Part shown: positions 31,431 through 52,447 of the stretch, piece after piece
Layout: each line of letters opens with the position of its first letter
Numbering within the stretch: position 1 is the stretch's first letter
Source: an uncultured Mycoplasmatota bacterium
GTDB lineage: Bacteria > Bacillota_I > Bacilli_A > RF39 > UBA660
Direction of reading: 5' to 3'
Length of the DNA stretch: 64,000 bases
Assembly: GCA_937944975.1 (NCBI GenBank)
Contig: CALEBF010000012.1
Coordinates: forward strand, 17,748-81,747
Made by a program: the position numbers and the translations under genes
The notes under the pieces: model-generated
Told to the model about the DNA's origin: nothing
The model's database searches: none
Seen by the model: only the letters and a program-made list of their open reading frames with translations

Positions 31431-33599
31431 ATGACGAAAAAAGATTCTAACGTAACATATGAGAAGTTAGAACAAGAGTGTAAAAAATATATGAAAGAGG
31501 AAGATATCGCGCTCATAAAAAAAGCCTATGAGTTTGCGAAAGAGTGTCATATGGGAGAACTACGCTTAACAGGAGAGGATTACATCGAACATCCTCTCTC
31601 TGTTGCTTATATTCTCTCGCATATGAATGCGGACTGTGCGACGATTTGTGCAGGGCTTATGCACGACTTGTTAGAGGAAAATGATGATGCTTTACCTTAT
31701 TTGAAAGAAACGTTTGGAGAAGATATCGTTTCGATCATCGAAGGAGTTACCGTGATCAATCGTTTGAACTTTGAAGGAGATACACAGTCTTTGATTGCGA
31801 ATCATAGAAAGATTTTGGTTGGGCTTTCGGAAGATGTGCGTGTCATCTTTGTAAAAATGGCAGATCGCCTTCACAACATGAGAACTCTTTGGGCACTTCC
31901 TGAGAAGTCGCAAAAAGAAAAAGCAAAAGAGACGCTCGATATCTTGACACCGATTGCGCACCGCTTAGGTATGAACCACATTAAAAGCGAGTTAGAAGAT
32001 TTATCTCTTCGCTATTTAAAACCGGACGTATATTTCTCTATCGTCGAACAGTTAAATCAGACGAAATCAGAGCGTGATCAATACGTTACTGATATGATAG
32101 AGAGTATCCATAAAATGTTGGAGGAAGCAAACATTCCACATAAGATCAAGGGAAGAGCAAAAAGTATCTATAGCATCTATAAAAAACTCGATAAAGGAAA
32201 GAAGTTTAGCGACATCTATGATTTACTTGCCCTACGTGTATTTGTAGATACCGAAGCTGAGTGTTATCAAGTACTAGGAATTATTCACTCGAAATTTAAG
32301 CCGAAGCCAAAACGTTTTAAAGACTATATTGCCATGCCGAAGACCAATATGTATCAATCTCTACATACGACAGTATTTGGGGTAGATGAACAACTATTCG
32401 AAATTCAGATTCGTACTTACGAGATGGATATGGTGGCTGAAAACGGTATCGCATCTCACTGGTCTTATAAAGAAAAAGGAAGCAGCACGAAGGCAAGCTT
32501 GCAAAATGCGATGGAACAAAAGTTGCAATTTTTCCGTTCTCTTATGGAATTGAAGCAAGAGGGGGCAAGCGAAGAAGAAATTGCAAACTCTGTTGCAGAT
32601 GAAGTTTTAAAAGAAAATGTATATGTATTTACTCCACAGGGAGATGTGATTGAATTATCGAAAGGAAGCACGCCAATTGATTTTGCTTACCGTGTTCACA
32701 GTAAAGTTGGAGATCAGATGGTAGGAGCCATCGTCAATAATAATATCGTTCCTTTGGATTACGAATTAAAAGATAACGATATCGTTAAAATCAATACGAG
32801 TAAAAACTCCCCTGGACCTAGTAAAGAATGGTTAAATATCGCACATACAGCCCAAGCGAAAAATAAAATTCGTGCATTTTTCCATCGCATCGATAAAGAA
32901 GATTACTTGAAACGTGGAGAAGAAGCGATCAATAAAGAGTTACGAAAAAGAAAGATTGCTTTTAATGATTTCTTTACTGATGCAAACGAACAAAAAATAT
33001 TAAAAGAATTGAAATATGATACATTAAATGAAGTTTATATTAACGTAGGGAATGGGAAATTGCCTGTTGGAACTCTGTTAAACATTATTTTTAATGAGAC
33101 AGAGACCAAAGAAGAGCTCATTTTAAAAAGGACGCAAAACAATAAAGTGTACGTACCAGCGATTAAAAACGATATCGTCGTCGATGGAATCGATGAGATT
33201 AAAGTAAATATCGCAAGTTGTTGTAAACCGATTCCAGGAGATCCAATTGCTGGATATATAACGAAAGGAAATGGAATTACAGTTCATCGTATGAGTTGCC
33301 CGAACATTCATGATTTGCAAGAGAGAATGATTTCTGTTCATTGGAACGAAGAGATTCAAAAGAAATATCCAACAACTGTCTTAGTACATGCAATAGAAGA
33401 AAAGAATGTGCTTTTAGATATTATTTCTAAGACGAGTAATACGAATGTTACTGTTCAAGGAATACAGACACTTCATACAAACGATGGATTTTTATATAAA
33501 ATTACAGTCATTCTTTCTAATAAAGAACAATTAGATAAATTTATGAATGATGTAAGAAGTATTTCTGAAGTCCGCGATGTAGAAAGATGGATGCAATAA
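31431..33599 (+). CDS. relA: bifunctional (p)ppGpp synthetase/hydrolase Rel
   Basis: HD hydrolase domain, synthetase domain, and TGS/ACT C-terminal domains. 722 aa. Confidence 0.9.
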   Translation: MTKKDSNVTYEKLEQECKKYMKEEDIALIKKAYEFAKECHMGELRLTGEDYIEHPLSVAYILSHMNADCATICAGLMHDLLEENDDALPYLKETFGEDIVSIIEGVTVINRLNFEGDTQSLIANHRKILVGLSEDVRVIFVKMADRLHNMRTLWALPEKSQKEKAKETLDILTPIAHRLGMNHIKSELEDLSLRYLKPDVYFSIVEQLNQTKSERDQYVTDMIESIHKMLEEANIPHKIKGRAKSIYSIYKKLDKGKKFSDIYDLLALRVFVDTEAECYQVLGIIHSKFKPKPKRFKDYIAMPKTNMYQSLHTTVFGVDEQLFEIQIRTYEMDMVAENGIASHWSYKEKGSSTKASLQNAMEQKLQFFRSLMELKQEGASEEEIANSVADEVLKENVYVFTPQGDVIELSKGSTPIDFAYRVHSKVGDQMVGAIVNNNIVPLDYELKDNDIVKINTSKNSPGPSKEWLNIAHTAQAKNKIRAFFHRIDKEDYLKRGEEAINKELRKRKIAFNDFFTDANEQKILKELKYDTLNEVYINVGNGKLPVGTLLNIIFNETETKEELILKRTQNNKVYVPAIKNDIVVDGIDEIKVNIASCCKPIPGDPIAGYITKGNGITVHRMSCPNIHDLQERMISVHWNEEIQKKYPTTVLVHAIEEKNVLLDIISKTSNTNVTVQGIQTLHTNDGFLYKITVILSNKEQLDKFMNDVRSISEVRDVERWMQ

Positions 33600-34057
33600 T
33601 GAGAACGATTATACAGAGAAGTTTACAATCTAATGTCAAGGTAGATGGCAAAATTATTGGAGAAATTGAAAAAGGACTTGTAATTCTCGTGGGATTTACA
33701 TATGATGATACTATAGAGGATATTAAAAAAATGGTCGATAAAATCGTTCATCTTCGTATTTTTGACGATGAAAACGGAGTTATGAATCGTTCTTTATTAG
33801 ATGTTGGTGGAGAAGTTTTGAGTGTTTCACAATTTACTTTATATGCCGATACGAAAAAAGGACGAAGACCTAGCTATATGAAAGCTTTGAGAGGAGAAGA
33901 GGCGATTCATCTATATGATCAGTTTAATTTATTGTTAAAAGATCATAATATAGATGTAAGCACTGGTATATTTGGTGCGGATATGAAAGTCTCTATTACG
34001 AATGATGGACCAATTACGATAGCGTTAGAAAGTGAGGAGTGGCATGTTAAAAAATAG
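33599..34057 (+). CDS. dtd: D-aminoacyl-tRNA deacylase
   Basis: MRTIIQRS..V...G.IEKGLVILVGF and C-terminal SNDGPIT. rel-dtd linkage is conserved. ATG overlaps the rel stop (TAATG). Confidence 0.85.
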   Translation: MRTIIQRSLQSNVKVDGKIIGEIEKGLVILVGFTYDDTIEDIKKMVDKIVHLRIFDDENGVMNRSLLDVGGEVLSVSQFTLYADTKKGRRPSYMKALRGEEAIHLYDQFNLLLKDHNIDVSTGIFGADMKVSITNDGPITIALESEEWHVKK

Positions 34058-35162
34058 GATTGACTATAAATTAGTAAATATCGCACTGATTGCCGGTATC
34101 ATCTATCTTTTATATCATACCGGTAAGTTATGGATGGGAGTAACAGATAAAATTATTGCAATTACATTGCCATTTTTCTTTTCTTTTATCATTGCCTATG
34201 CTTTTCATCCAGCAGTCAAGTATCTGGAGAAAAAAAGCTTTCCAAAATCAATTGCAATCTTTGCAGTCGTTGCCATTATCGTAAGTTTATTTGCGATTAC
34301 GGCGGTTTTAATTGCGCCGTTATTATTCGATCAACTATCTAGTTTATTCAATAGCATCATTTCATTCTTAAAAGAGATGTCTATCAATTACGATTGGAAT
34401 GTCGGGCCATTACAAGATTCGTTATCTAAAACATTTAAAGAAATTATCGTGAATTTAGGAAAATATGTATCTGATGGAGCCTTATCTGTAATCGGGGTTT
34501 CTCTATCTGTCATATCTGCGATCGTCATTTCATTTTCCGCATTCATTTATTTCTTGATTGACATGGATCGAATTCGTGAAGGGGTTAGAAAATTCTTAAA
34601 GAAAACTTCAACACGTGCATTTCGTTATGTTCAAACCCTAGATCATGAAATGCACAATTATTTAACAGGATTTGTTAAAATCATCTTTATCTCTTTAATC
34701 GAATATACATTAGCATTCTATATCATAGGACATCCAAATGCATTATTATTAGGTTTTCTAGCGGCAGTTGCCACATTGATTCCTTATTTCGGAGGAATTG
34801 TCGTTAACTGCATCGCTGTGATTACTGCGTTTGTCTCAGGTCCAATTTTATTCATCAAAACGATTATTGCTTTTCTAGTGCTATCTAGTTTGGATGGATA
34901 TTTGATCAATCCACTTGTCTATGGTAAGACGAATGAGGTCCATCCAATCGTCGTTATTATGTCTGTCTTTGCAGGAGGAATTCTATTTGGAGTTACGGGA
35001 ATTATACTTTCATTACCATGCGCGATTTTACTTATCGCGACATATAAATTTTTCCGTGAAGATATCGTAGATAAATATGAAGAGATCAAAGAAAACAAAG
35101 ACGAAAAAGAAAAAACGATTCGAAAAAAACAAAAGCATAAAAAAAGTTCTAGCACAGTCTAG
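34044..35162 (+). CDS. AI-2E family transporter (YtvI/TqsA-like)
   Basis: 8-TM architecture with the conserved central pattern of PF01594. Confidence 0.55.
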   Translation: MLKNRIDYKLVNIALIAGIIYLLYHTGKLWMGVTDKIIAITLPFFFSFIIAYAFHPAVKYLEKKSFPKSIAIFAVVAIIVSLFAITAVLIAPLLFDQLSSLFNSIISFLKEMSINYDWNVGPLQDSLSKTFKEIIVNLGKYVSDGALSVIGVSLSVISAIVISFSAFIYFLIDMDRIREGVRKFLKKTSTRAFRYVQTLDHEMHNYLTGFVKIIFISLIEYTLAFYIIGHPNALLLGFLAAVATLIPYFGGIVVNCIAVITAFVSGPILFIKTIIAFLVLSSLDGYLINPLVYGKTNEVHPIVVIMSVFAGGILFGVTGIILSLPCAILLIATYKFFREDIVDKYEEIKENKDEKEKTIRKKQKHKKSSSTV

Positions 35163-35270
35163 AATTTTTTAAATTTATAAAAGAAAGAATTATAGAAAAA
35201 CATCGACTCCTTTCTTGACAAAAAAGAAAGGAACTAGGTATAATAGTAACAGAATGATAGCGAGGGGTAC

Positions 35271-36003
35271 TATGTCTAAATGGAAATATTTCATTGTTTT
35301 GCTGTTTTGTTTGGCAATTTTTCCAGATGTTGTATCTGCAGAGTCTTGTGATTATAATGTGTTATCCAGATTAAAAAATTATGCTAGTAATATAAAATAT
35401 GACTATAGTTATACCGAGCAAAATAATCAAGTTGTATTTACTGCGCGTTTTACAAATATTTCTGATAATGTCATTTTAACAGATAAGACAACGGGACAAA
35501 CTTATACAAATGTCGGAGAAATTACAATAGGAAACTTACAGCCTGGGAAGAGTTATGAATTTACTGTGATTCCTTCAAACAAAGGTTTAACAAGCGTGAT
35601 TAGACGTCAAAATATCTGGGGACAATGGGTGGAATATGAAGTTCCAACAGATGTAAACGAAAGTTGTAGAAACACAGAGTTAAAGAAGATTTATATTACA
35701 CTTCCATCGTACAACCCTTATTATAAATTACCTGTATGTGAAGGTGCAGAAGAATACGATATGTGTTTTAAATGGCAAAAGCACGAATTATCGGAAGAAC
35801 AATTTATAGAAGATGTAACAGAATATAAAGAGAAACATGCTGTACAAGAAGATGACGACAAAGAAAAAAAAGAAACATCATTGATAGAACAAATTATTAA
35901 GTTATTGCGAGACTATTATTATGTTCCAATTACGATCGCAATTATTATCGTAATTGCAGCAGTTTATATAAAGAAGAAACGAGAAGCAGAGGAAGGCTGG
36001 TAG
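35271..36003 (+). CDS. secreted Cys-rich protein with C-terminal TM anchor, unknown function
   Basis: TTGACA (35212) and TATAAT (35236) lie inside the track ORF. The real start is the ATG at 35271 after GAGGGG. Signal peptide, then eight Cys, then a TM anchor. Confidence 0.5.
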
Positions 36004-36004
36004 T

Positions 36005-38179
36005 ATGAAAAAGATATTTTACGGAATATTAGTCATTGGTATTGTTGGAATTATGGGATATGCTACACTACAAAATGCTGAGGAAGTTGAGGCAAAACCT
36101 ATTCCTCAAGATGAGTTATGTAAACAACCTGGTTATTTTGAAGATAGTTTTAGTTACAAAGAAAATGAATATTGTTCAACTACTTGTGTAGCAAAAGGAT
36201 ATACTGATTTTCCAACTGATATTACAACGGTAAATGTCGATCAAACAGTAAATGCCGGAGGACAATTTCAATGGGAAGAGATTCGAATCAATACGGAATT
36301 TGAATGTACGACAAACATCGATTATTCAAAGTGGTATAACGATTATAATCGCTTGATTGAAACTGCTAAACAAGCCTTGAGAAATATCGCTAGGGAAGCG
36401 CATCAATATCACACAAGAGATGTTATTGGACCTTGTAATATTCGAATTTATAATGGAACATATACAACTTATTCGAATACGAATTCATACGCTAGTGAAT
36501 GTTATAACTATGCCAATAGTACTAATGAATACATTAATTCAATTAGTAAAGTAAATGAATATGCTCCAAATGCTAATTGGAAGAGTGAAGCAACACGACA
36601 ACATATTTCTTTTGACGCACAATATTTTGAGCAAGGAACTAGAGATTGTTATTCATTGGGAGCAACTGGTGATCAGGGTAAGGCGTGTAAACCTGGATAC
36701 AGACCTGATGGTGCGAGCTTATGTTGTAAAGTTAATTCTTGGTATGAGTACAAATGTTATACAGAAAATTATAGTGTATCTAAGGGTGAACTAATTAAAT
36801 ATGAGAAAGTTCAATGTGGAGATACGGCAGATACATGTCATGTTGTAGATACTAAATATTATTGTAGTCAATCTATGCCTGTTTGGGATGTTAATTACGA
36901 TAACTATTGGGTAGATGTATTTAACGATGCAATGAGAAAATTAAAATCAATGGGATCCAATGGATTACCAGGAAAGTTAAAAGCTTGCAATGAATCAAGT
37001 GAGAAGAGAATTCAAAAAATTGCAAAGGATCCACGCACGATTGTACATTATGTAGATCCAACTGACAATTATCATGACGCGGAGAATTTACAGTTAGAAA
37101 CTGTGGTAGAACAGCCACTCACTATGACGACAACTCAAAAAACACCTGCTGCTAATCCAAACATACCGGTGTTGAATACAATTGCTGATGGGGTGTCTAA
37201 CAATGGGAACAGTAGTTTTAGTTTTACTGCATTGGGAAAAACTGCAGGTGTTAGATTATATACACAAACGACCTCAGCTGCTTATTCTCAATATGCCAAT
37301 ACTCAAGTTAAGAAAAAGGCAACTGCAAAATATAAATACGAGTTACCGGATGGATTTTATCAATATACGTTAAAACCTGATGGAAATATCGTTCATAAAC
37401 CGGGATCTACAGGAGCAAGTATGGCAAATCAAGGATCTATTAGCTCTTATGTGGATAGTGGGCGTTATATCGATTTAGGATACTCTAGCTATCCAGTACA
37501 TTATCAGACTCCAACGGGAATTTATCCGATTTCCTTAACTTATAATATTCCAGGAGTTATCGATGGAGATCGTTTGTACGAATGTATGTATCGTGTTAAA
37601 AATCGAATTGCTTGTCCAGAAGGTGAATGCCCTGATCCTGGAGAAGAAACGCCACCTGGAGATGGAGGAAATGATAATCCGACATGTCCAGATGGAGTGT
37701 GTGATGACGACGATCTATATTCTGGGCTCAATGTTGTGTATCGTTCAATAGCGTTATCTGCTCCGTTCCACTATAGAAATGGTAGGGTAAGAGAATCAGG
37801 TGAAAACTGGACTGATCAAGACATAAGCGAATTTATTTTAAACAACCGCGGAGTTTCAGATGATGATGTATATAATAAACAACCAATTTATGAATTTACT
37901 TTGACTCCTGCAGCGATTGCTGATATTCGAAAGTATAATAGTACGCATGAATTTTCTGATTTTAGAACGATGACGTGCTATGGAAAAGATGAGGAAGGAA
38001 AATCGATTGGTACAAAATGTAAGAGTCAATTTATCGACGACATGAAAGGTGTTTTAAATGCATCTGGATCTTGTATTACAAATCGTAGTGCTGCCGGCTT
38101 CTATAGTTGTGCTGGAAAGAAGTCAAATCAGGATCAAATTGATGTCGCGAAGATGTTAAATAAGAATGGAAGTTTATAA
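36005..38179 (+). CDS. large secreted Cys-rich protein (724 aa), unknown function
   Basis: Signal peptide/TM, many paired Cys, and a CPEGECPDPGEETPPGDGGNDNPTCPDGVCDDDD linker. Translationally coupled to the upstream gene. Confidence 0.5.
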   Translation: MKKIFYGILVIGIVGIMGYATLQNAEEVEAKPIPQDELCKQPGYFEDSFSYKENEYCSTTCVAKGYTDFPTDITTVNVDQTVNAGGQFQWEEIRINTEFECTTNIDYSKWYNDYNRLIETAKQALRNIAREAHQYHTRDVIGPCNIRIYNGTYTTYSNTNSYASECYNYANSTNEYINSISKVNEYAPNANWKSEATRQHISFDAQYFEQGTRDCYSLGATGDQGKACKPGYRPDGASLCCKVNSWYEYKCYTENYSVSKGELIKYEKVQCGDTADTCHVVDTKYYCSQSMPVWDVNYDNYWVDVFNDAMRKLKSMGSNGLPGKLKACNESSEKRIQKIAKDPRTIVHYVDPTDNYHDAENLQLETVVEQPLTMTTTQKTPAANPNIPVLNTIADGVSNNGNSSFSFTALGKTAGVRLYTQTTSAAYSQYANTQVKKKATAKYKYELPDGFYQYTLKPDGNIVHKPGSTGASMANQGSISSYVDSGRYIDLGYSSYPVHYQTPTGIYPISLTYNIPGVIDGDRLYECMYRVKNRIACPEGECPDPGEETPPGDGGNDNPTCPDGVCDDDDLYSGLNVVYRSIALSAPFHYRNGRVRESGENWTDQDISEFILNNRGVSDDDVYNKQPIYEFTLTPAAIADIRKYNSTHEFSDFRTMTCYGKDEEGKSIGTKCKSQFIDDMKGVLNASGSCITNRSAAGFYSCAGKKSNQDQIDVAKMLNKNGSL

Positions 38180-38197
38180 TTTCCATTCTTTTTTTCA
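38164..38197 (+). terminator. rho-independent terminator
   Basis: GAATGGAA-9 nt-TTCCATTC followed by T8. Confidence 0.7.
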
Positions 38198-38214
38198 TTA
38201 CTTTTAACAAAAAT

Positions 38215-38242
38215 TTGACAAAATCAAACTTTTGTATATAAT
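38215..38242 (+). promoter_or_regulatory. sigma-A-type promoter (TTGACA, 16 nt, TGtTATAAT)
   Basis: Near-consensus -35 and extended -10 upstream of the lipoprotein gene. Confidence 0.6.
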
Positions 38243-38270
38243 AGGAGTCATCAGGGAGGAGAATGATACA

Positions 38271-38879
38271 ATGGCTTTGAGTAAAACACAAAGCAAAAAG
38301 GCTTTATATAAGAAAGCTTTAGCTGCATTACTTGCAGGAACAATGGGAATGGGAATTGCTGGATGTAGCAATTCAAACGAAGGAACACAACCAGATTCAA
38401 AAGAACAAACGTCAGAGGTAAATGAAGATCCGAAAAGTGAGAAATTTGAACTTCCAACAGAAACGATGAGTGTTGAGGAAACACAGGCTTTGGAAGTTGG
38501 AACAGAGATTATGTTGACAGATTTAAGTAAAATGCCAAACGAAGCAACTTTAGAAGAAATGAATCGTTCTACAGCGTATTTATTAGATTTAAGTTTTAAG
38601 GATCAGAACGGAAAAGATATTGAGGGTGGAGTTATTATGAGTGGAACTTTACCTGATGGAATTTTAGATACAGGGTATATAGATGAACCATTAGAAGATG
38701 GCACAACAAGAAGAACAAAACTAGTTGGGATAACTATCGCACAAGTAGATTCATTTACTCAAGATGAAAATGGACAATGGATCAAAATGCTTACAGATGG
38801 TGAATATTTGTATGAAGGAACTCCTGTTGTTTCAGAAAAATTGTTACAACAATTTGGTGGACCTCAAAAAACTAAATAG
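38271..38879 (+). CDS. lipoprotein, paralogue family member A
   Basis: ATG at 38271 after GGAGG. Lipobox GIAGC. Shares the motif ..EET..L.....I....L.KMPNE.TLEE......Y.......NG with the 41619 and 42330 products. Confidence 0.5.
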   Translation: MALSKTQSKKALYKKALAALLAGTMGMGIAGCSNSNEGTQPDSKEQTSEVNEDPKSEKFELPTETMSVEETQALEVGTEIMLTDLSKMPNEATLEEMNRSTAYLLDLSFKDQNGKDIEGGVIMSGTLPDGILDTGYIDEPLEDGTTRRTKLVGITIAQVDSFTQDENGQWIKMLTDGEYLYEGTPVVSEKLLQQFGGPQKTK

Positions 38880-38895
38880 GGAAACTATTCACATT

Positions 38896-38934
38896 AAAAA
38901 TTGCTTTTAATATATAAAAGCAATTTTTTGTTTT
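38896..38934 (+). terminator. rho-independent terminator
   Basis: AAAATTGCTTTTA-5 nt-TAAAAGCAATTTT followed by a T-run. Confidence 0.65.
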
Positions 38935-39024
38935 AATAACATAGTTATTGATGATGAGGATATCAATTGACATTCTTTTTTTTATTCCGTATAATGAGCT
39001 TAGTATATAGTAAAGAGGGGTAAG

Positions 39025-40377
39025 ATGGGAAAACACAATAGAAAATCATTAAACAAAAAAAGTGTAATTGTTTTATATGCAAAAAAGTATATGAAGATTA
39101 TAGTAGGAATTGTTATCACGTTGATTGTGATAATTTGTGTTGCGACCATGTGGAACCAAGAACGGTTGAAAACGATTGCTGCTGATGTAAGAGAAATTAT
39201 GGAAAAAAATGACCTGACACAAGGACTTTTCCATATCAAAGGAAGTCGAGTTTATTATGAAGATAATGATAAGAAAGAACTAGTGGGTACACTACCTCTC
39301 TTTGGATGGGTAAATGGATATGTGCATTTGACGGAAAATAATGAAATGATTCGTATTTGGAATCATGGGTGGATTACATATAAAAATTATAATCAAAAGA
39401 ATATGAAAACTAGTCTGTTGTTTGCAAATCAAATGCTTACGTACAACACGATGGAAAATGAACAAGTATTTATTGTTCCTTCTACTGGAACTTATAAAAT
39501 AGAGTTATGGGGAGCAAAAGGCGGAGAATCTACTGCTTACCGTGATACGAATCCTTATGTTGGAAAAGGAGCTTATGTTTCAGGAGAAATCTTTTTGTGG
39601 AAAGGTGAGAAACTTTATTTACAAGTTGGATCAAAAGGGGAAGATGGAGAAAAGATTGAAGATTTGAGAAGATTTACTGCCTTTGGATATCCTTCTTCCG
39701 GTGGTAAAGGAGGATATAATGGTGGTGGAGACGGAATGGATGATTCTGAATTAAGCGCCGGCGGAGGTGGCGGAGGAGCTACCGATATTCGTCTAGTTTC
39801 TGGAAATTGGGATGACTTTGATTCTCTTAAGTCACGTATTATGGTTGCCGGAGGTGGCGGAGGAATGAGTCGGTTATATACTTATACTAACACTTCATAC
39901 GCGGATGCTGGATCAAGTGGATCTGGTGGAACTACAGAGGGTATAAAAGCGAAAGTGGTTTTATTTGATGACAATATATATGGTTATGGTTCTACACAAA
40001 CAGAAGGTTATCAATTTGGTGTTGGAGAAAATGGAGAATGGTGCTTATCTACATTAAATGGCCTTGGTGGAGGAGCTGGAGGTTATATGGGATCTCACTC
40101 CGGTGCTTGTAATAAAACAGACTGGTATCTTCCAACAGGTGCTGGCGGTGCTTCTTCATATGTATCTGGATGCAAGAATTGTAAGGCAATTAAAGAATCA
40201 TCTACAGAAGATAATTTAGAATTCGAAAAGAACAGTACTCATTATTCGGGCAAAAAATTTAAAAATATCGTTATGATCGATGGTGATAGCGAGATGCCAA
40301 GTACGAAGGATACGAAAAAGAAAATGACTGGTAATAATGGCGATGGTTATGCACGTATTACAAAGGTAGGTTGGTAA
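39025..40377 (+). CDS. glycine-rich membrane-anchored protein (Gly_rich-like domain)
   Basis: Own promoter (TTGACA 38967, TATAAT 38990). N-terminal TM. TGTYKIELWGAKGG start, followed by repeated GGGGGG tracts. Confidence 0.5.
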   Translation: MGKHNRKSLNKKSVIVLYAKKYMKIIVGIVITLIVIICVATMWNQERLKTIAADVREIMEKNDLTQGLFHIKGSRVYYEDNDKKELVGTLPLFGWVNGYVHLTENNEMIRIWNHGWITYKNYNQKNMKTSLLFANQMLTYNTMENEQVFIVPSTGTYKIELWGAKGGESTAYRDTNPYVGKGAYVSGEIFLWKGEKLYLQVGSKGEDGEKIEDLRRFTAFGYPSSGGKGGYNGGGDGMDDSELSAGGGGGGATDIRLVSGNWDDFDSLKSRIMVAGGGGGMSRLYTYTNTSYADAGSSGSGGTTEGIKAKVVLFDDNIYGYGSTQTEGYQFGVGENGEWCLSTLNGLGGGAGGYMGSHSGACNKTDWYLPTGAGGASSYVSGCKNCKAIKESSTEDNLEFEKNSTHYSGKKFKNIVMIDGDSEMPSTKDTKKKMTGNNGDGYARITKVGW

Positions 40378-40378
40378 C

Positions 40379-41503
40379 ATGATAGATAAGAGATTTATAT
40401 ATTTTGTTTTAGGGATTATTTTAGTTTTTATCGTATTAGAGTTTCTGCTTACCTATGTGCCTTTTTTAGAAAAAGAAACTGCGTATGCTTCGTTTGTAGA
40501 ACAAACAGATAAAATAAAAAAAGAAAAAGTAAATGAGATTACTGAATATCAGTTTGATAATGGCAATTTATATCGGACGCCAACTGGAGATATTTTTGGT
40601 TCCTGGGAGTATCCTAATTTCTGTATCGTTCAAGAATATCCAAGTAAAAAACCTGTGATTACAAGTGAATGCGAAAAAATCACTTATGATATTGCAGCAA
40701 AACATATAGAAAAGACAAGCGATACAAAAGATCTATTAGATGATACGGAAGTAACCGGGAAAGATACGACAAAGCCATTTAGTAGTAAAAAATACTTTGT
40801 AGGGACAAATCCTAATAACTATTTATATTATTCTGGTAGTTGTTATCGAGTTGTAAATATCGCTCAAAATGATACTGTGAAAGTTGTTTACGAGGGAATT
40901 GCAAATTCTGATGGAAGTTGTACTGATGTTGCTGATAATAATTCAGGAATGGTTATGCTTTATACTTGGGATGAAAATAAACAAAGATCTGGTAACTTTG
41001 AGAATGCTTCTACGTTAAAAGGAAATCTCGATCGTTTTTATGAAGAAGAAGAGATCAATACAGTAGCTATGAAGCAACCGATTGATACCAGTGTTATCGC
41101 AATGGCCGATTGGTATATTGGAAAAGTAAACGAAGGCAATACGACGTTACTTGAAGATATACAAAATGAACGAAGCGAAATATCAACGACACAGTTTCCA
41201 TTAGGGCTTTTAAATAATAGTGACTATTTAAAAATATCATGTCAAACATCTGGAGGTAAATCGACTACAGATTGCTCTAAGAATAACTATTTATATAAGT
41301 CAAAATATCAATGGTGGATGATCAACTATGGTGAAGAAAAAGATGCATGGTTTGTTCATAAAGATGGTACGATGAAGTCAGATACAATTGGTTATTCTCA
41401 TGAATATCGATTTAGTGGCGTTAGGATGGCATTCTACTTAAAAGCAGACACTTTACTAACTGGAAATGGAACGGAGAATAGCCCATATCGCATTATTAAA
41501 TAA
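40379..41503 (+). CDS. membrane-anchored extracellular protein, unknown function
   Basis: Coupled to the upstream gene (1-nt gap). N-terminal TM. C-terminus ...YQWWMINYG....AWFVHKDGT......YGVRMAFYLK resembles C-terminal modules of some Firmicute surface proteins. Confidence 0.45.
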   Translation: MIDKRFIYFVLGIILVFIVLEFLLTYVPFLEKETAYASFVEQTDKIKKEKVNEITEYQFDNGNLYRTPTGDIFGSWEYPNFCIVQEYPSKKPVITSECEKITYDIAAKHIEKTSDTKDLLDDTEVTGKDTTKPFSSKKYFVGTNPNNYLYYSGSCYRVVNIAQNDTVKVVYEGIANSDGSCTDVADNNSGMVMLYTWDENKQRSGNFENASTLKGNLDRFYEEEEINTVAMKQPIDTSVIAMADWYIGKVNEGNTTLLEDIQNERSEISTTQFPLGLLNNSDYLKISCQTSGGKSTTDCSKNNYLYKSKYQWWMINYGEEKDAWFVHKDGTMKSDTIGYSHEYRFSGVRMAFYLKADTLLTGNGTENSPYRIIK

Positions 41504-41511
41504 TAAATGAT

Positions 41512-41541
41512 AAAACCAATATCTCGCTATATTGGTTTTTA
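41512..41541 (+). terminator. rho-independent terminator
   Basis: AAACCAATAT-ctcgct-ATATTGGTTT followed by TT. Confidence 0.65.
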
Positions 41542-41618
41542 CATGTGATTTACAAACTGCTTGACAACTAGAATCATTCTTGTATAATATTTTTTTGTTA
41601 ATAAGGGGGGTGGATGAA

Positions 41619-42239
41619 ATGTTATTGATTGAAAAAAAGAAAACATTGTATAAAAAAATGCTTGCTATAGCGCTTGCTACTACTGCTACATTAGGAATGA
41701 CTGGATGCAATAATAACGAAATAGGTTCAGAAGAAGAATATTCTGATGTCATGATGAATAATGGTTCGAGATATGATGATAAAACATTTCAACAGGAACC
41801 GTTGAGTAAAAAATATTTACCCGAAGCTATTATGGATAGCACTAAAACAAAGCTTTTAGCAACTGGTACATATATTGATGCAGAGGATTTAAACGAGATG
41901 CCGGATGAGAAGACGCTTGAATTGAATGATCAGGCAATTTGTTATTGGTATTCAAGTAGTACAGAACAAAACGGAGAATTAGTGAACACAAAATATGCGT
42001 TGTCATACCCAGAGTTTTTATATCCTGATGGTGCTGCTACAGTTATGAAAGAAGAAGGAAAAGACGTAATCCATTTTCTTGGAATTGAGATTGTCGATAT
42101 CATTGATTATCAAAAAGACAAGGATGGAGATTACGAGAAATACATTCAACTTGAATCAAATGAGATTGTATCTGCTGGGCGTGTCTTGTCAGAAAGTAAG
42201 ATAGAGGAATTAGATGGAAATCAAAAAGTATTAAAATAA
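41619..42239 (+). CDS. lipoprotein, paralogue family member B
   Basis: Promoter TTGACA/TATAAT near 41560-41590. AAGGGGGG RBS and ATG at 41619. Lipobox GMTGC. Paralogous to 38271 and 42330. Confidence 0.5.
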   Translation: MLLIEKKKTLYKKMLAIALATTATLGMTGCNNNEIGSEEEYSDVMMNNGSRYDDKTFQQEPLSKKYLPEAIMDSTKTKLLATGTYIDAEDLNEMPDEKTLELNDQAICYWYSSSTEQNGELVNTKYALSYPEFLYPDGAATVMKEEGKDVIHFLGIEIVDIIDYQKDKDGDYEKYIQLESNEIVSAGRVLSESKIEELDGNQKVLK

Positions 42240-42265
42240 GATGGAATTGATTTCCATTTTTTTGT
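42240..42265 (+). terminator. rho-independent terminator
   Basis: ATGGAA-ttgatt-TTCCAT followed by TTTTTT. Confidence 0.65.
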
Positions 42266-42329
42266 TTGACAAGTATTTAGAATTGAGATACTATGATATT
42301 AGATAAAAGATTAAAGATTGAGGGGTTTT

Positions 42330-42893
42330 ATGATGCAAAACATTGTTAGATATAATCAGGCATTTAGAGAAAAACTTTTCAGTAGAAGTTCTGAGCTTGT
42401 CTTGAATAAGGCTATTTCTTTGGAAGAGGATGACAATGTTTCTTATTTACCACATACGACTATGAGTAAAGAAGAGACTAATCAGTTAATCCTTTGTCAA
42501 GAAATTAAAGTTGAAAATTTGAAAAAGATGCCTAATGAAAAAGTATTAGATGAACGTATGATGACATTAGCATATCATTACCGTACGTTATTGGATCGAA
42601 ATGGAAAACTAGAACCTCTCGATTTGAAAGTGACAGTAGGCGAACCTCTTCGCAATGATCAATTATTTCGAAAGCGGTGTTATTTGGAGAATGGTAAACT
42701 GTATGATCTCCACTATGTTTTTGATGCGATTTCAATTCATCCGGTGTTTCGATATTATCAATTAAGAGAAGATCAGGAAGGAATTTTTTATAAATTAGGT
42801 ATTGTCAATGGAAAAGAACTTCCATGCGGTGTGGTAAAATCTCCTAAAAAAGTACGTGAATTAAGTCAAAATTACTACATACAAACAATTTAG
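42330..42893 (+). CDS. cytoplasmic paralogue (family member C) of the two lipoproteins
   Basis: No signal peptide. Shares the TMSKEET...L.KMPNEKVL.E....AY.......NG block. Own TTGACA promoter. Confidence 0.45.
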   Translation: MMQNIVRYNQAFREKLFSRSSELVLNKAISLEEDDNVSYLPHTTMSKEETNQLILCQEIKVENLKKMPNEKVLDERMMTLAYHYRTLLDRNGKLEPLDLKVTVGEPLRNDQLFRKRCYLENGKLYDLHYVFDAISIHPVFRYYQLREDQEGIFYKLGIVNGKELPCGVVKSPKKVRELSQNYYIQTI

Positions 42894-42904
42894 AAGATAT
42901 ATTA

Positions 42905-43140
42905 TATTCTTGACGTTTGATAGAAAATCTTATATACTAAGAGTAGATTTCAGATGAAGTGGAAGAGTATAAAAAGATACACTTTAAAGAGACGATATGG
43001 TTGGTGAAAATATCGAGTGTTATTTTTAGAAGACACCATGGATGAAAACGTAGTCTTTGCGTTAAAAAGAGCGAGGTAGAGAAGTCTATGAAATAAGGTG
43101 GTACCGCGCGATCAGCGCCCTTATATCTAGCTTCTTTTTA
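42905..43140 (+). promoter_or_regulatory. T-box riboswitch leader
   Basis: Conserved T-box sequence AAGGTGGTACCGCGCG at 43095-43110, followed by a short GC hairpin and a T-run. hisS-aspS operons in Firmicutes are classically T-box controlled. Confidence 0.55.
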
Positions 43141-43158
43141 TTGTTTAAGGGGGATTTT

Positions 43159-43695
43159 ATGGAATTGCAGGAAGCGATCAAAAACCGGAGAAGTGTTCGC
43201 AAGTTTAATGAAGAGAATGTCTCGAAAGAAGAAATCATGAAAATTTTGGAAAGTGCTCGTCTAGCACCCTCTGCCAAAAATATGCAACCGTGGCATTTTG
43301 TCGTATTAAGAAACGAGCAAATAGAGCACGTCTATCAAATGATGGTAGAAAAAATGGAAAAGGATGAGAGTGCGCGTGGAGCAGAGCCCACTTCTCGAAC
43401 AGTGAGAAGAGCGAATACTTTGATTTTAGTATTTAATACGATGCCTGATGATAGTACGATCAACATGGAACAATCGATTGGAGCTGCAATTGAACACATG
43501 CTTTTAACTGCAACAGAACTTGAGATTGGTAGTGTATGGATTCGAATGACATATATTATCGAAGATGAATTACGAGATTGTTACCATATGGATGGTATGC
43601 GGTTGAGTGCAACTGTAGCGCTTGGACATTACGATGAATTACCTAGTCCAAGACCTAGAAAAGAATTAGAAGATATCATGACTTGGTATGAATAA
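43159..43695 (+). CDS. nitroreductase-family protein
   Basis: N-terminus IKNRRSVRKF, typical of NfsB/NfnB-like nitroreductases. AAGGGGGA RBS. Confidence 0.7.
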   Translation: MELQEAIKNRRSVRKFNEENVSKEEIMKILESARLAPSAKNMQPWHFVVLRNEQIEHVYQMMVEKMEKDESARGAEPTSRTVRRANTLILVFNTMPDDSTINMEQSIGAAIEHMLLTATELEIGSVWIRMTYIIEDELRDCYHMDGMRLSATVALGHYDELPSPRPRKELEDIMTWYE

Positions 43696-43707
43696 AGGAG
43701 GAAGAAT

Positions 43708-45033
43708 ATGATACAAAAGCCAAAAGGAACTTATGATGTGTATGGAACACAAGGGGAAAAAATATTATATTTAGAAAATTTATTAGCATCTCTAATGGAA
43801 AAGTATAATTATCAGTACTTACGTACACCGCTCTTTGAACAGAGTGATCTATTTCACCGTGGCGTAGGAGAGACAACTGATATTGTAACCAAGGAAACAT
43901 ACGATTTTACTGATCGCGGAAATCGTAATATGACGTTACGTCCAGAAGGGACGGCTGGAGTTGTCCGCAGTTTTATCGAAAATAAAATGTATGGAGATCC
44001 AACACAACCGATTAAAACTTGGTATTATGGACCGATGTATCGTTATGAAAGACCACAAGCGGGAAGATTTCGTGAATTTTATCAATTTGGCGTAGAGGCA
44101 TTCGGTAGCAACGATCCGATGTTAGATGCTGAAATTATTAGTATTCCAGTTAATTTTTATCGTTTACTTGGATTAAAAGGGATCAAAGTAAATATCAATA
44201 GCCTAGGAGATACAGAATCACGTTTAAAATATCGTGAGGCGTTACTAGATTATTTTAAACCTCATTTAGACGAGCTTTGTGAAGATTGTAAGTCTAGATA
44301 TAAGAAAAACCCACTTCGTATGTTAGATTGTAAAGTGGATGCTGAAAAAGAGATTATGAAAAAAGCACCAAAGATGAAAGATTATTTGACGGAAGAGAGT
44401 AAGAAACATTTCGAGCTTGTGAAGAAATATTTGGAAGCGATGAATATCGAATATATAGAAAATCCAAACTTAGTGCGTGGTCTTGACTATTATACTTATA
44501 CAGTATTTGAAGTCGAAGCTGCCGTAGAGGGGTTTGGTAGCCAAAATGTATTATGTGCGGGTGGAAGATACAATGATCTCGTACGTACGATTGGTGGACC
44601 TGATACGCCAGGGGTTGGATTTGCACTTGGTATGGAAAGACTTCTTACTGCATTAGAATATGAGCATATCGAACTTCCGATCGAATCAGGAGTAGATGTA
44701 TATGTTGTGCCAATCGAAGAAGCGCAAAAGCCATATGCGGCATCTTTAGTACAAGCACTTCGTATGACGGGATACAAAGTAGAGACTGATTATATGAATC
44801 GAAGTATGAAGAGTAATTTTAAAATGAGCGATCGCGTCAGTGCGAAATATGTCATTTTACTTGGAGAGACAGAAGTTGAATCAAATGAATTAACTGTAAA
44901 AGATAACCGTACAAAACAAGAATATAAAGTGATGTTAGAAGATATCGTCGATTTTTTAGATCAGAATTTAGATGGTGAGGTCCACGAATGTCATTGTGGG
45001 GGAAACTGTCATTGTCAAAAGGAGGAAAAGTAG
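43708..45033 (+). CDS. hisS: histidine--tRNA ligase
   Basis: Class II motifs (motif 2 FRYERPQAGRFREFYQ; GGRYD motif 3) and C-terminal anticodon-binding domain. Confidence 0.9.
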   Translation: MIQKPKGTYDVYGTQGEKILYLENLLASLMEKYNYQYLRTPLFEQSDLFHRGVGETTDIVTKETYDFTDRGNRNMTLRPEGTAGVVRSFIENKMYGDPTQPIKTWYYGPMYRYERPQAGRFREFYQFGVEAFGSNDPMLDAEIISIPVNFYRLLGLKGIKVNINSLGDTESRLKYREALLDYFKPHLDELCEDCKSRYKKNPLRMLDCKVDAEKEIMKKAPKMKDYLTEESKKHFELVKKYLEAMNIEYIENPNLVRGLDYYTYTVFEVEAAVEGFGSQNVLCAGGRYNDLVRTIGGPDTPGVGFALGMERLLTALEYEHIELPIESGVDVYVVPIEEAQKPYAASLVQALRMTGYKVETDYMNRSMKSNFKMSDRVSAKYVILLGETEVESNELTVKDNRTKQEYKVMLEDIVDFLDQNLDGEVHECHCGGNCHCQKEEK

Positions 45034-45034
45034 T

Positions 45035-46351
45035 ATGAATCGAATTAAATTAAAGGACTTAGATCAATATTTTGGGAAAGAAATAGAAGTACAGGCATTC
45101 GTTGAAAATATTCGCGATTTACAGTACGTTCAATTCGTTATCTTACGTGATGGAAGTGCGACAGTGCAGATGACGATTGAAAAAAGCGAAGAGAAGAATG
45201 CATCATTGGTTGAACTTTTTAAGGAATTACCTCTTGAAAGTACGATCAAGGCCAAAGTACTTGTCTCTGAAAATCCTAAAGTGAAATTACGTGGAATGGA
45301 ATTGTTACCGATTGAAGTAGAAGTGACGAGTCGTTCTAAAAACGAACTTCCAATCGATTTAAAAGATAAAGAAAAAACGCTGAGAGAGACGAGATTAGAT
45401 TATCGTTTCTTAGATTTACGTCGCAAGGATAATCATCTTTTATTCGAATGTGAGACTTATCTAGAACATATGATGAGAGAGTATTTTATCGCTCATGAAT
45501 ATATGGAAATACACTCTCCTAAAATTGCTGCAGGGGCTGCTGAGTCTGGTGCGGAGGTATTTAAGATCGATTATTTTGGAGAGGAAGCTTGCCTTTCACA
45601 ATCACCACAATTTTACAAACAAATGGCGATTGCTGCTGGGTTTGATCAAGTATTTGAGATTGGCCCTGCGTTTCGTGCTGAAAATTCTCATACAAGTTAT
45701 CATGCAACCGAGATTAACATGGCCGATGTAGAAATCGGATGGATCCATTCATTTGAAGATGTCATGGATATGGAAGAAGAATTTTTAAAGTATGTCATTT
45801 CTAAATTGAACGAAAAATATGGAGAGGAGATCAAGTCTACATTCCATGTCGATTTAGTTGATACGAGTATTCCATTTGCCCGTGTTACATTTAATGAAGC
45901 AAAACGTATTTTAAAAGAGGAATGCAATTTTGTAGGAGAAAGAGAAGATGATTTTGAACGTCAAGAAGAAATGCTAATTTGCGAGTATTTTAAAAAGAAA
46001 ACGGGAACAGATTTTGTCTTTGTAACGAAGTTCCCATTTGCTGCACGACCTTTCTATCATATGCTTGATAGTGATGGAAACACATGTAGTTACGACTTAT
46101 TATTTAGAGGAATTGAACTTACGACAGGAGCACAAAGAGAACATCGTAGAGATATTTTAGAACACCAAATGATCGAAAAAGAGATCGATCCAAAGTCTCT
46201 TGCGTTCTATCTTGAATTCTTCGAGTACGGATGTCCACCACATGGAGGATTCGCAATCGGAATCGGACGCTTTATGATGCAATTATTCAATATTGATAAT
46301 ATTCGTGAGGCTACATTTATCTATCGTGGTCCTACGAGGTTAAATCCTTAA
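45035..46351 (+). CDS. aspS: aspartate--tRNA ligase, short archaeal/eukaryal-type class IIb
   Basis: QSPQFYKQ flipping-loop signature of AspRS. About 439 aa, with no bacterial insertion domain. hisS-aspS synteny. Track ORF extends 5' into hisS. ATG at 45035 after GGAGGA. Confidence 0.7.
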   Translation: MNRIKLKDLDQYFGKEIEVQAFVENIRDLQYVQFVILRDGSATVQMTIEKSEEKNASLVELFKELPLESTIKAKVLVSENPKVKLRGMELLPIEVEVTSRSKNELPIDLKDKEKTLRETRLDYRFLDLRRKDNHLLFECETYLEHMMREYFIAHEYMEIHSPKIAAGAAESGAEVFKIDYFGEEACLSQSPQFYKQMAIAAGFDQVFEIGPAFRAENSHTSYHATEINMADVEIGWIHSFEDVMDMEEEFLKYVISKLNEKYGEEIKSTFHVDLVDTSIPFARVTFNEAKRILKEECNFVGEREDDFERQEEMLICEYFKKKTGTDFVFVTKFPFAARPFYHMLDSDGNTCSYDLLFRGIELTTGAQREHRRDILEHQMIEKEIDPKSLAFYLEFFEYGCPPHGGFAIGIGRFMMQLFNIDNIREATFIYRGPTRLNP

Positions 46352-46427
46352 GAAAGCTAGTGAATTTTCACTAGTTTTTTCATGCGTTTTTCACAGAATC
46401 GGTGTATAATGAATGAGAGGTGATACT

Positions 46428-47102
46428 ATGAAGATACTTGTTGTAGATGATGAAGCACTCATTCGCTCTGTCGTAATAGAATATGTAGAAAACGAAGGAT
46501 ATGAGGTGGTCGAAGCAGAAAATGGTTTAGATGCGGTAGAAATCGTTCGTAACGATCCATCTATCGATCTTATGATATTAGATATCATGATGCCTAAGAT
46601 GGATGGGTATACTGCATATGAAGAGATTAAGAAGATACGTAACCTTCCGACGATTATGCTTTCTGCAAGAGGAGAAGAGTACGATAAACTCATGGGATTC
46701 CAACTTGGAATCGATGACTACTTAACCAAACCATTTAGTCCAAAGGAACTGGTTGCACGTATGAAGGCAGTTATGAAGCGTTATCTAGAAAGAACCGAGG
46801 GGGACTTATTTCATTATAAAGGACTTAAGATTGATTTTAAAGGCCGTGTTGTTACCATAGATGAAGAGGAAGTAAAATTGACTCCAAAAGAGTATGAATT
46901 ATTGACATACTTTGTTACAAATCCTAATATTGCACTCTCTAGAGAGCAGCTTTTAAATCAAATTTGGGGGTATGACTTTTTTGGAGATGATCGAACGATC
47001 GATACACACGTTAAGATGTTGCGTAACAATTTAGGACCATATCGTGATTTGATTGTAACCGTTAGAAGTATGGGGTATAAGTTTGAAATTAAAGAAAAAT
47101 AG
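46428..47102 (+). CDS. OmpR-family response regulator
   Basis: Receiver domain (VVDDE, phospho-Asp region DIMMP) plus winged-helix C-terminus. TGtTATAAT at 46403. Confidence 0.85.
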   Translation: MKILVVDDEALIRSVVIEYVENEGYEVVEAENGLDAVEIVRNDPSIDLMILDIMMPKMDGYTAYEEIKKIRNLPTIMLSARGEEYDKLMGFQLGIDDYLTKPFSPKELVARMKAVMKRYLERTEGDLFHYKGLKIDFKGRVVTIDEEEVKLTPKEYELLTYFVTNPNIALSREQLLNQIWGYDFFGDDRTIDTHVKMLRNNLGPYRDLIVTVRSMGYKFEIKEK

Positions 47103-48480
47103 TTTAGGGGTTAAGATATGGCTGTATCTCTGTTTATTCTCGCTTTTGATTTTAGTGTTTCTATGGTTATTTCAGGTTCTCTTTCTAAATACATATTATG
47201 AATGGGTCAAAAGTAAACAGATTCGTACATTAGCCTCTGATTTAAGAAACCAGTATAAAGATAATGATTGGACGGAACTTTTAGATGATATGGCTTATGA
47301 AAAGGGAATTTGTATTGAAGTATCGAAAGATAATCGTACGATATATACCTCATCTGCTTTCAATCGTGGTTGTATGATTAACAGTGATCGAAATCCTAGT
47401 ATTTTATATTATAAAAACGATTTTATAGAAAGTGGAAAAAGAAAGAAAGAGTACGAGCTGATCAATCCGGCTTTAAATAATAAGACGTTATTTTATGGAA
47501 TTAAACTAGATCAAGATACGTATGGATTTATCAGTGCTTCTCTAGAACCTTTAGACGAGGGAGCACGCATTATTAAAAGTCAGTTAATTTATGTATCGAT
47601 CGGTGTTTTTGTTCTTTCTTTGTTGATCGGATACGTCTTATCAAAAAAACTTTCCAGACCGATTGTCAAAGTAAATAAAACAGCGCTCAAAATGGCAGAA
47701 GGAAATTACGATATTACGTTTAAAACCGAAGAAGATATCGATGAAATCAATCAATTAGTACAGACATTGAATCATGCGAAAGATGAGCTATCTAAGACGG
47801 AAGAATTAAGAAGAGATTTGCTTGCAAACGTAGGACATGATTTAAAAACACCACTTACGATGATCAAGGCATATGCGGAAATGGTGCGAGATCTTACTTA
47901 TAATAAAAAACAGAAGAGAATTCAAAATTGTAATGTCATTATAGAAGAAGCGGATCGCATGACGGGGCTCGTTAATGATATCGTAGATTTATCACAACTA
48001 CAATCACGTGTCTTAGAGATGCATATGGAACGATTTAATATTACGGAGCTCGTTTATACAATTTTAAAACGTTACGATATTTTAAAAGAAAAAGAAGTTC
48101 TTAAGTTTGTATTCGATGAAAAGAACGATTACTATGTATATGCAGATAAAAAGAAGTTAGAACAAGTCATCTATAATTTGCTTAACAATGCAATCAATTA
48201 TACTGGTGAAGATAATACAGTAACGATTCGCTTGATTCCAAAAGAAGATGTGATCCGAGTTGAAATTTCAGATACTGGAAAGGGAATTAAAGAAGAGGAC
48301 TTACCTCACATTTGGGATCGTTATTATAAAAATAGTAAAAAGCATAAACGAAATGCAGTAGGTACGGGAATTGGTCTTTCTATCGTCAAAAATATTTTAA
48401 TCAATCATCATTTTGAATATGGTGTGATTTCGAAAAAAGGAAAAGGAACGACTTTCTATTTTGAAGCAACGAAAAAATAA
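47083..48480 (+). CDS. sensor histidine kinase
   Basis: Two TMs, HAMP-like region, H-box ANVGHDLKTPL, and N/G boxes (NLLNNAINYT; GTGIGLS). Confidence 0.85.
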   Translation: MKLKKNSLGVKIWLYLCLFSLLILVFLWLFQVLFLNTYYEWVKSKQIRTLASDLRNQYKDNDWTELLDDMAYEKGICIEVSKDNRTIYTSSAFNRGCMINSDRNPSILYYKNDFIESGKRKKEYELINPALNNKTLFYGIKLDQDTYGFISASLEPLDEGARIIKSQLIYVSIGVFVLSLLIGYVLSKKLSRPIVKVNKTALKMAEGNYDITFKTEEDIDEINQLVQTLNHAKDELSKTEELRRDLLANVGHDLKTPLTMIKAYAEMVRDLTYNKKQKRIQNCNVIIEEADRMTGLVNDIVDLSQLQSRVLEMHMERFNITELVYTILKRYDILKEKEVLKFVFDEKNDYYVYADKKKLEQVIYNLLNNAINYTGEDNTVTIRLIPKEDVIRVEISDTGKGIKEEDLPHIWDRYYKNSKKHKRNAVGTGIGLSIVKNILINHHFEYGVISKKGKGTTFYFEATKK

Positions 48481-48577
48481 TGTGCAAACATTGTTTTTTT
48501 TGTTTCACCGAACTTTCATGAAAACGTCAATTTCTCTTCGCTTTTTCTACATAGAATAGAAGAGGAAAGGAGATCAT

Positions 48578-48822: not shown

Positions 48823-48880
48823 GCGTTTTTCGTTGCGAGAACGTATTACTCGTGCTATAATACGCTTTATGGAGGCACAT

Positions 48881-49729: not shown

Positions 49730-49856
49730 AAACTCGTATAAAAAGACTTGAAACTTCATAAATTTTCATGTATATTATAAATGTACTTATTCTTGGTTTA
49801 AGAAGTCTCCGACTTTTTCTCGGAATAAGCGTATAATATAAGAAAGGAGAACAGAC

Positions 49857-50126: not shown

Positions 50127-50181
50127 GGAAAAAAGTAGGCACTCGTTTTTGGGTGTCTTTATTTTTATAGATGGAGGATAT

Positions 50182-52407: not shown

Positions 52408-52447
52408 TTTTCTTCTTTTTTTCGTGTATAATAAAGTTGGTGATAAA

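Follow-up and report, generated by a model that had tools for sequence, protein, structure and literature searches.

The Vlp, Vsa and Vsp proteins of Mycoplasma are families of variable surface lipoprotein paralogues in the Mollicutes. The LanI-type lipoproteins NisI and SpaI are immunity proteins whose non-lipidated form coexists with the lipidated one. In ALK and LTK, the glycine-rich domain (GRD) is an extracellular ligand-binding module. Here, we analyze a locus that can be compared with each of these, a group of three paralogous genes (A, B and C) within a seven-gene cluster of an uncultured Mycoplasmatota bacterium of the order RF39. The genes lie on a 64-kb stretch of GenBank contig CALEBF010000012.1 (positions 17,748 to 81,747), which we call the window at its full length.

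A preliminary description of the window, made from the letters alone, had compared the three genes to the immunity-protein or cognate-binder arrays of polymorphic toxin or surface-effector systems. We find that they belong to a newly recognized, previously undescribed and lineage-restricted lipoprotein family of RF39/CAG-822 gut Bacilli, with an ancestral position next to a GRD membrane protein in a five-gene surface module. In the window, A is the hypervariable module copy, and its variable domain changes between strains together with an internal cassette of its secreted neighbor; B is conserved but missing in some strains; and C has lost its export signals while remaining under purifying selection. 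RF39 bacteria are common, uncultured, small-genome inhabitants of human and animal guts whose cell surface is almost uncharted.

Results

A new family of predicted lipoproteins

The three open reading frames (ORFs) lie on the forward strand at 38271–38879 (A, 202 amino acids, aa), 41619–42239 (B, 206 aa) and 42330–42893 (C, 187 aa), where the preliminary description had placed them, and their proposed kinship is borne out by alignment. Pairwise BLASTP matches A to B over about 200 aa, their full length, with 28% identity (8e-19), B to C over 183 aa with 26% identity (3e-9), and A to C over the 55-aa motif block with 45% identity (9e-10). The alignment of all three contains 26 invariant columns, including LP..M...T..L, MP.E..L, Y and NG, and a tblastn search finds exactly three copies of the family in the window. 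The motif first proposed as common to the three is exact in A and C, but B reads MDSTKT where the motif has MSxEET.

Two of the three proteins carry lipoprotein leaders and the third has none, as had been noticed. The N-termini of A (MALSKTQSKKALYKKALAALLAGTMGMGIAGC, ending in GIAGC, with lipobox IAGC and Cys32) and B (MLLIEKKKTLYKKMLAIALATTATLGMTGC, ending in GMTGC, with lipobox MTGC and Cys30) fit the Gram-positive lipoprotein pattern G+LPPv2; in both, a positively charged n-region and a hydrophobic h-region precede the lipobox, which ends in the invariant Cys. A and B are therefore classical predicted lipoproteins and putative substrates of Lgt and LspA. C has neither a match to this pattern nor a hydrophobic segment (its maximum 15-aa Kyte-Doolittle score is 0.77), and a stop codon just upstream of 42318 closes its reading frame, so that no leader is hidden there. 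MAFFT aligns the N-terminus of C (..YNQAFREKLF..) with ..KKALYKKAL.., which in A and B is the n-region of the signal peptide; this alignment suggests that C may begin with a degenerated leader.

The family is small. It comprises 16 clusters among 5.8 billion proteins, and a set of 1.84 billion proteins, searched exhaustively with HMMER, yielded 44 representatives. Its hosts are RF39/CAG-822 gut Bacilli, namely Candidatus Fimihabitans and its relatives. A lipobox is present in 48 of the 55 members examined, and the seven without one are all C orthologues. Consequently, this is a lipoprotein family in which C represents a single clade that has lost export, together with the hydrophobic core and the lipobox. 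Across 42 family members, the lipobox Gly and Cys are each at least 90% conserved.

No described family accounts for these proteins. A, B and C have no match above the curated cutoffs of Pfam, NCBIfam, PHROGs or PADLOC, and when 42 aligned relatives were scanned one by one against curated families, the best scores were sub-threshold noise. A profile search of the PDB with the family returned matches confined to the signal peptides of Gram-positive lipoproteins. The similarity among the three is significant, and they do not fall into a known, unrelated housekeeping lipoprotein family; neither of the two outcomes that would have refuted the preliminary description is seen. Two further matches to the family profile, a DUF285/leucine-rich-repeat protein (P0046) and a lipase (P0056), were rejected as spurious, since only short repeated stretches match. 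An AlphaFold2 model built from a 15-sequence alignment is confident and mostly beta, with a predicted local distance difference test score (pLDDT) above 90 over residues 60–198, and Foldseek finds no counterpart for it in the PDB or BFVD. The family alignment is too diverse for pattern design. In a rough neighbor-joining tree, A joins a fourth paralogue described below, B joins the lipoproteins that occupy the position of A in the L015/L016 lineage, and C stands on its own long branch.

A conserved component of a five-gene surface module

A, B and C lie within a seven-gene insert, g1-g2-A-g4-g5-B-C, between the dtd/AI-2E permease genes and a T-box leader. The insert site, from dtd/AI-2E permease to T-box-hisS-aspS, is a fixed core-genome position in every relative seen. 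The arrangement of the window recurs in loci of related metagenomes and genomes (L001–L003, L007, L011, L015, L016 and L098–L100). More distant relatives, whose g4 (GRD) proteins are 48–52% identical to that of the window, have a permuted gene order. In L014, the order is lipoprotein-GRD-g5-g1-g2; in L018, two tandem lipoproteins are followed by GRD, g1 and g2, with g5 not detectable; and in L017, the order is GRD-g5-g1-g2, its upstream side ending at the contig end. Throughout this permutation, the lipoprotein stays adjacent at a protein identity of 37–48%. Because it remains next to GRD, g5, g1 and g2 even where their order has changed, it is a conserved component of one five-gene surface module. 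The association with the neighboring large proteins, which the preliminary description had pointed to, is supported by L014 and L018. We conclude that the ancestral place of the family is beside the GRD membrane protein within this module (lipoprotein, GRD, g5, g1, g2), and that B and C were added in the lineage of the window.

Tandem lipoprotein pairs occur in L013 and L018. Those of L018 (1–1411) are 51% identical to one another and remotely related to the family (hidden Markov model E-value about 1e-8), and the position of g5 in that locus is occupied by an unrelated 537-aa membrane protein. The contexts of three further members (P0025, P0029 and P0050) were not used, as their contigs are too short.

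The GRD partner is far more widespread than the family. An initial genome scan with a single GRD protein returned no matches; the 79 GRD loci that we compared, drawn from 185,579 species genomes, contain the family only in close orthologues of the module. No family lipoprotein stands beside GRD in 75 of the 79. The loci without the family hold either arrays of GRD genes or giant GRD proteins. In L019, L021 and L033, the latter reach 2,000–4,000 aa, and arrays of PF12810 genes include nine in tandem in a water-buffalo Bacilli metagenome-assembled genome (MAG; L041, 1066–15658) and six in Segatella albensis (L042, 3–5122). In bacteria, GRD proteins thus seem to form a family of surface proteins that has expanded. 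A literature search on PF12810 and bacterial GRD found nothing relevant.

A fourth paralogue type (P0012 and P0015) resides at another locus (L004, 10001–10579; L008, 10001–10540), where there is no GRD module. It comes after genes for an HTH_26 regulator, zinc-ribbon (DZR) membrane proteins, a Band_7-GYF_2 protein and a DUF4839 protein, and a type I restriction-modification system lies beside it. Scans of viral contigs with A and g5 returned no relatives, and we rejected a prophage origin of the locus on these grounds.

The variable domain of A changes together with a cassette in g2

The housekeeping proteins that flank the insert are 93–100% identical among relatives, and the module is far more divergent. 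A is its most divergent part, with identities of 88, 60, 61 and 37% among relatives. Its signal peptide is 94–97% identical between alleles and its linker about 80% identical, while residues 104–160 are 25–32% identical between alleles and the beta-domain as a whole (residues 104–202; 38580–38876) is 24–38% identical between haplotype groups. The secreted protein encoded by g2 has a hypervariable internal cassette (aa 150–270; 36452–36814) that is 23–33% identical between strains (23–32% between haplotype groups), while the rest of the protein is 90–100% identical; in all-against-all matrices, its aa 300–724 are 89–97% identical.

The A domain and the g2 cassette sort the genomes in the same way. 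The window groups with L001 (69% identity in the g2 cassette, 85% in the A domain), L007 groups with L010 (90 and 96%), and L098 is unique in both. The g2 region between them (aa 300–724) groups otherwise, with the window 97% identical to L007 and 89% identical to L001, and mixed combinations of A and g2 types are absent among seven genomes. Therefore, two non-adjacent cassettes share a history that the intervening DNA lacks. Such concordance is what selection for matched pairs would predict.

B and C behave differently. Across haplotypes, B is 91–99% and C 98–100% identical, the latter range holding even across genomes whose module differs by about 50%. When proteins are clustered at 90% identity, the cluster of A has three members, that of B has 88 and that of C has 72. 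The ratio of nonsynonymous to synonymous substitution rates (dN/dS) is 0.10–0.15 for B and 0.11–0.13 for C, and ranges from 0.15 up to 0.48 for A. Copy number varies between strains, a check called for in the preliminary description: L011 and L016 have no B, the L007 copy of C carries a frameshift close to its 3′ end, and the fourth paralogue is present at the other locus.

Sequence has also been exchanged between the A locus and a second locus. The allele P0017 (L097, 127–738) has flanks that match window positions 38145–39264, and its mature domain shares 68% protein and 80% DNA identity with the second-locus paralogue of L004, which indicates exchange between loci by gene conversion or recombination. 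Across the wider region, a comparison of L007 with window positions 32300–50199 reveals a sharp recombination mosaic, with hisS and aspS identical (synonymous divergence, dS, 0.00) and dtd and the AI-2E permease, across the cluster from them, at a dS of 0.66–0.88; C has a dS of 1.8 in the same comparison. Within a genome, no switch was found at the locus: there is no invertible element, homopolymer switch or silent cassette, the inverted repeats are terminators only, and the coding regions have no tandem repeats beyond trivial short ones. A thus differs from strain to strain as alleles and does not phase-vary within a genome.

Genes and expression signals of the cluster

All features of the cluster lie on the forward strand. 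A perfect sigma-70 promoter (TTGACA-N18-TATAAT; 35215–35244) precedes the g1-g2 operon. The g1 product (35272–36003, 243 aa), kept in all module loci, is a surface protein with hydrophobic termini, namely a signal peptide and a C-terminal membrane anchor, and a weak Fn3-like region (Fn3_Dep-1 at E 1e-3, below cutoff). The start of g2 (36005–38179) abuts the g1 stop, and its product, a secreted protein of 724 aa that is rich in Cys, has a signal peptide but lacks an anchor. It has only eight clusters of homologues, no Pfam match and no fold match, and its structure model is poor (pLDDT 50.6). A likeness of that model to pore-forming toxins in a PDB search (probability only 0.01–0.02) was not used, and a monocot lectin match (E 0.18) was disregarded as too weak.

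A terminator hairpin with a T-run follows g2 (38162–38190), and A has its own perfect sigma-70 promoter (38215–38242) and a terminator-like hairpin downstream (38886–38938). A third perfect promoter (38967–38995) serves the GRD-g5 operon. Its first gene, g4 (39025–40377), encodes a 450-aa N-terminally anchored membrane protein (transmembrane segment at about 13–46) with an ALK/LTK-type GRD (PF12810, 2.9e-46), which has phage homologues of unknown function. The second, g5 (40379–41503), encodes a module-specific, N-terminally anchored membrane protein of 374 aa with no known domain. A hairpin follows g5 (41507–41544), and B has the fourth perfect promoter (41561–41588). The promoter-like site of C (42266–42294) retains 10 of 12 matches.

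These four sites, before g1, A, GRD and B (35215–41588), are the only perfect TTGACA-N16-18-TATAAT sites in the 64 kb, compared with 0.17 expected by shuffling. Their own perfect promoters and the hairpins after g2, A and g5 make A and B monocistronic, and the same signals suggest that both are probably strongly expressed. The cluster looks like one of the most strongly transcribed surface modules of RF39 and is the fastest-evolving stretch in a conserved neighborhood. Directly after C, a T-box leader (RF00230, 103 bits; 42945–43125) heads a nitroreductase-hisS-aspS operon, in which the nitroreductase gene separates the T-box from the tRNA synthetase genes.

The organism and the remainder of the window

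Among genome records, the closest come from Candidatus Fimihabitans intestinipullorum and from a MAG of an uncultured member of the Bacilli. Candidatus Fimihabitans is the GTDB genus UMGS1648 of the family CAG-822, order RF39 (PMC8035907), and NCBI classifies it in the Mycoplasmatota. A metagenome scan with g5 returned a single contig, from the human gut, that is identical to the window over the compared part, and one relative's locus sits on a 1.04-Mb scaffold.

The window carries lspA (14667–15188, forward strand; PF01252, 5.6e-36), whose product, signal peptidase II, would process A and B; lgt was not seen within the window. Also encoded are murI (149–982) and a Mur ligase (21660–23015). 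The cell therefore has a lipoprotein-processing enzyme and a wall. At 4830–9133 are spoIIGA, a sigE-like sigma factor gene (5614–6306) and a second sporulation-type sigma factor gene (sigG; 8336–9133), here in a bacterium of RF39, a small-genome lineage classed near the Mollicutes. Upstream of a ToxN toxin gene (24040–24567; PF13958, 1.7e-46), a 34-nt unit is repeated 3.2 times in tandem (23884–23993). Together (23884–24567), gene and repeats resemble an abortive infection locus of the type III toxin-antitoxin kind (ToxIN), in which the repeats would be the RNA antitoxin. Three ORFs of 561, 498 and 298 aa (52400–55635 and 48833–49729) have no Pfam match at E ≤ 1e-5, and two of them are located between pnp and holA.

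Discussion

A proposed surface-tethered variable lipoprotein with two conserved paralogues

We propose that A is displayed on the cell surface as a tethered protein, whose variable beta-domain would dock the variable region of the secreted, anchorless g2 protein and thereby serve as its membrane tether or cognate binder. Alternatively or additionally, A may be a dominant exposed antigen. Both A and g2 would be exposed to host immunity or phage and would diversify under that pressure. The conserved N-terminal motif (M-S-x-E-E-T...P-D/N-E-x-x-L-E), common to all members including C, may contact a conserved partner. B would be a conserved second surface copy, dispensable in some lineages, and C would employ the same fold in the cytoplasm, possibly binding the same kind of partner before export. 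To the package as a whole, with a surface-tethered and variable A as g2 partner and/or antigen, a conserved B and a cytoplasmic C, we assign a probability of roughly 0.5. Its most doubtful parts are the direct binding of g2 by A and the role of C. The cognate-binder half of the preliminary description is plausible here, as the variable domain of A does change with the g2 cassette.

Several points weigh against this proposal. The contact between A and g2 is deduced from co-variation in only three to four independent haplotype groups, and the two variable regions are 1.8 kb apart, so that linkage or parallel immune selection could yield the same pattern. B and C co-vary with nothing. The fourth paralogue, without a GRD module, means that the family is not obligatorily tied to the module. 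The lipidation and surface exposure of A and B are predictions from their leaders, the poor model of g2 leaves room for a toxic activity, and the role given to C is a guess and the least certain step.

A different account of the same variation is parallel diversification without binding. Here, A and the g2 cassette would simply be the most exposed epitopes of an abundant surface layer, driven apart by antigenic or phage pressure; they would change together through linkage and the same external selection, and none of A, B and C would have a specific partner among its neighbors. The perfect promoters imply abundant surface proteins, hypervariability is limited to parts of A and g2, recombination is mosaic across the region, the P0017 domain records inter-locus exchange, and a family member exists outside the module, all of which this account accommodates. 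It does not readily explain why the intervening part of g2 has a history discordant with both cassettes and yet no mixed A/g2 combination occurs in seven genomes, nor why the lipoprotein has kept its adjacency through permutation of the gene order. We consider it doubtful, though it is the strongest of the alternatives.

A bolder version of the pairing holds that the A beta-domain and the g2 cassette are a co-evolving lock-and-key pair within a GRD surface machine for strain-specific recognition, with B and C accessory or regulatory. Such a pair, if true, would act in self/non-self discrimination or kin adhesion, or would form a new effector-immunity pair. As a specific claim, we judge it unlikely.

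Also unlikely is toxin or bacteriocin immunity, in which g2 (or g5) would be a secreted antibacterial protein, A its cognate lipoprotein immunity protein, and B and C orphan immunity genes. The layout of the window lends itself to this idea: A comes straight after g2, which encodes a secreted protein, and varies in step with the g2 cassette, B and C come after g5, lipoprotein immunity proteins of the LanI type exist, and the fold of g2 is unassigned in its poor model. However, scans against Pfam, NCBIfam and PADLOC found no toxin, trafficking or secretion-system domain in g1, g2, GRD or g5; domains of the LXG, WXG100, Rhs, contact-dependent inhibition (CDI) and bacteriocin types are among those absent from the cluster. 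Pfam scans of other ORFs of the window likewise revealed no secretion-system component (LXG/WXG100/EssC, CdiB or Rhs/PAAR) and no matching toxin domain. The variable part of g2 is internal, its C-terminal 425 aa being 89–97% conserved; B and C are conserved single alleles instead of a diverse orphan array; and a cytoplasmic C could not guard against an extracellular toxin. In L014 and L018, the lipoprotein precedes GRD, far from g2, the locus keeps its fixed core-genome position in every relative seen, and the relatives of GRD elsewhere are giant surface proteins and multi-gene arrays. The polymorphic-toxin reading of the preliminary description is accordingly not supported.

That C is only the decaying relic of a dead duplicate, leaving two functional lipoprotein paralogues, is very improbable: it has neither signal peptide nor lipobox, its promoter is weaker and its L007 copy is frameshifted, but its dN/dS of 0.11–0.13, like that of B, marks a functional gene, its 187-aa frame is intact in the window, L001, L002, L011, L015, L016 and L098–L100, its 90%-identity cluster has 72 members, the N-terminal 35 residues are conserved among C orthologues, and a good Shine-Dalgarno sequence (GAGGGG) precedes its ATG.

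Under the proposal of a surface-tethered, variable A with two conserved paralogues, A and g2 are candidates for a lipoprotein and a secreted protein that pair allele by allele, which can be tested. Apart from it, the analysis adds a new family of proteins, whose fold is predicted with confidence and has no match in PDB and BFVD searches, a natural case of a lipoprotein turned cytoplasmic while kept under selection, and a defined genetic context for bacterial ALK-like GRD proteins. As the biology is lineage-restricted and the mechanism is deduced, we regard the value of these findings as moderate, not high.

Comparison with known systems

The likeness to polymorphic toxin-immunity loci (CDI, Rhs and LXG/type VII secretion) is superficial. 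As in those systems, small paralogues follow genes for large membrane or secreted proteins, and copy number varies between strains. One small gene, A, also appears to change with a variable segment of the protein encoded upstream, in three to four haplotype groups; in L014 and L018, the lipoprotein gene is separated from g2. In contrast to those systems, neither toxin or trafficking domains nor a secretion system were found at the window locus, its variable segment is internal and not C-terminal, its extra copies B and C are conserved, and its chromosomal position is fixed in the core genome.

Like LanI proteins (NisI and SpaI), A is a lipoprotein encoded beside a secreted product, and lipidated and non-lipidated forms are both present. 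However, genes for lantibiotic biosynthesis or transport are absent from the neighborhood, neither sequence nor fold finds a match, and the non-lipidated form here is a separate, diverged gene. The neighbor g4 is a clear member of the ALK/LTK GRD proteins, which fits a surface binding complex, whereas A, B and C themselves have no GRD and most bacterial GRD loci lack an adjacent family lipoprotein.

In its behavior, the locus most resembles the variable surface lipoprotein families of the Mollicutes. The window family differs from Vlp, Vsa and Vsp in that it has no sequence similarity to them and no tandem repeats in its mature region, one of its paralogues is leaderless, its variation is allelic with no switching device at the locus, and its organism encodes peptidoglycan and sporulation genes. 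Nevertheless, it shares with them the presence of several lipoprotein paralogues, a mature region that diverges behind a highly conserved signal peptide and 5′ end, and predicted strong expression.

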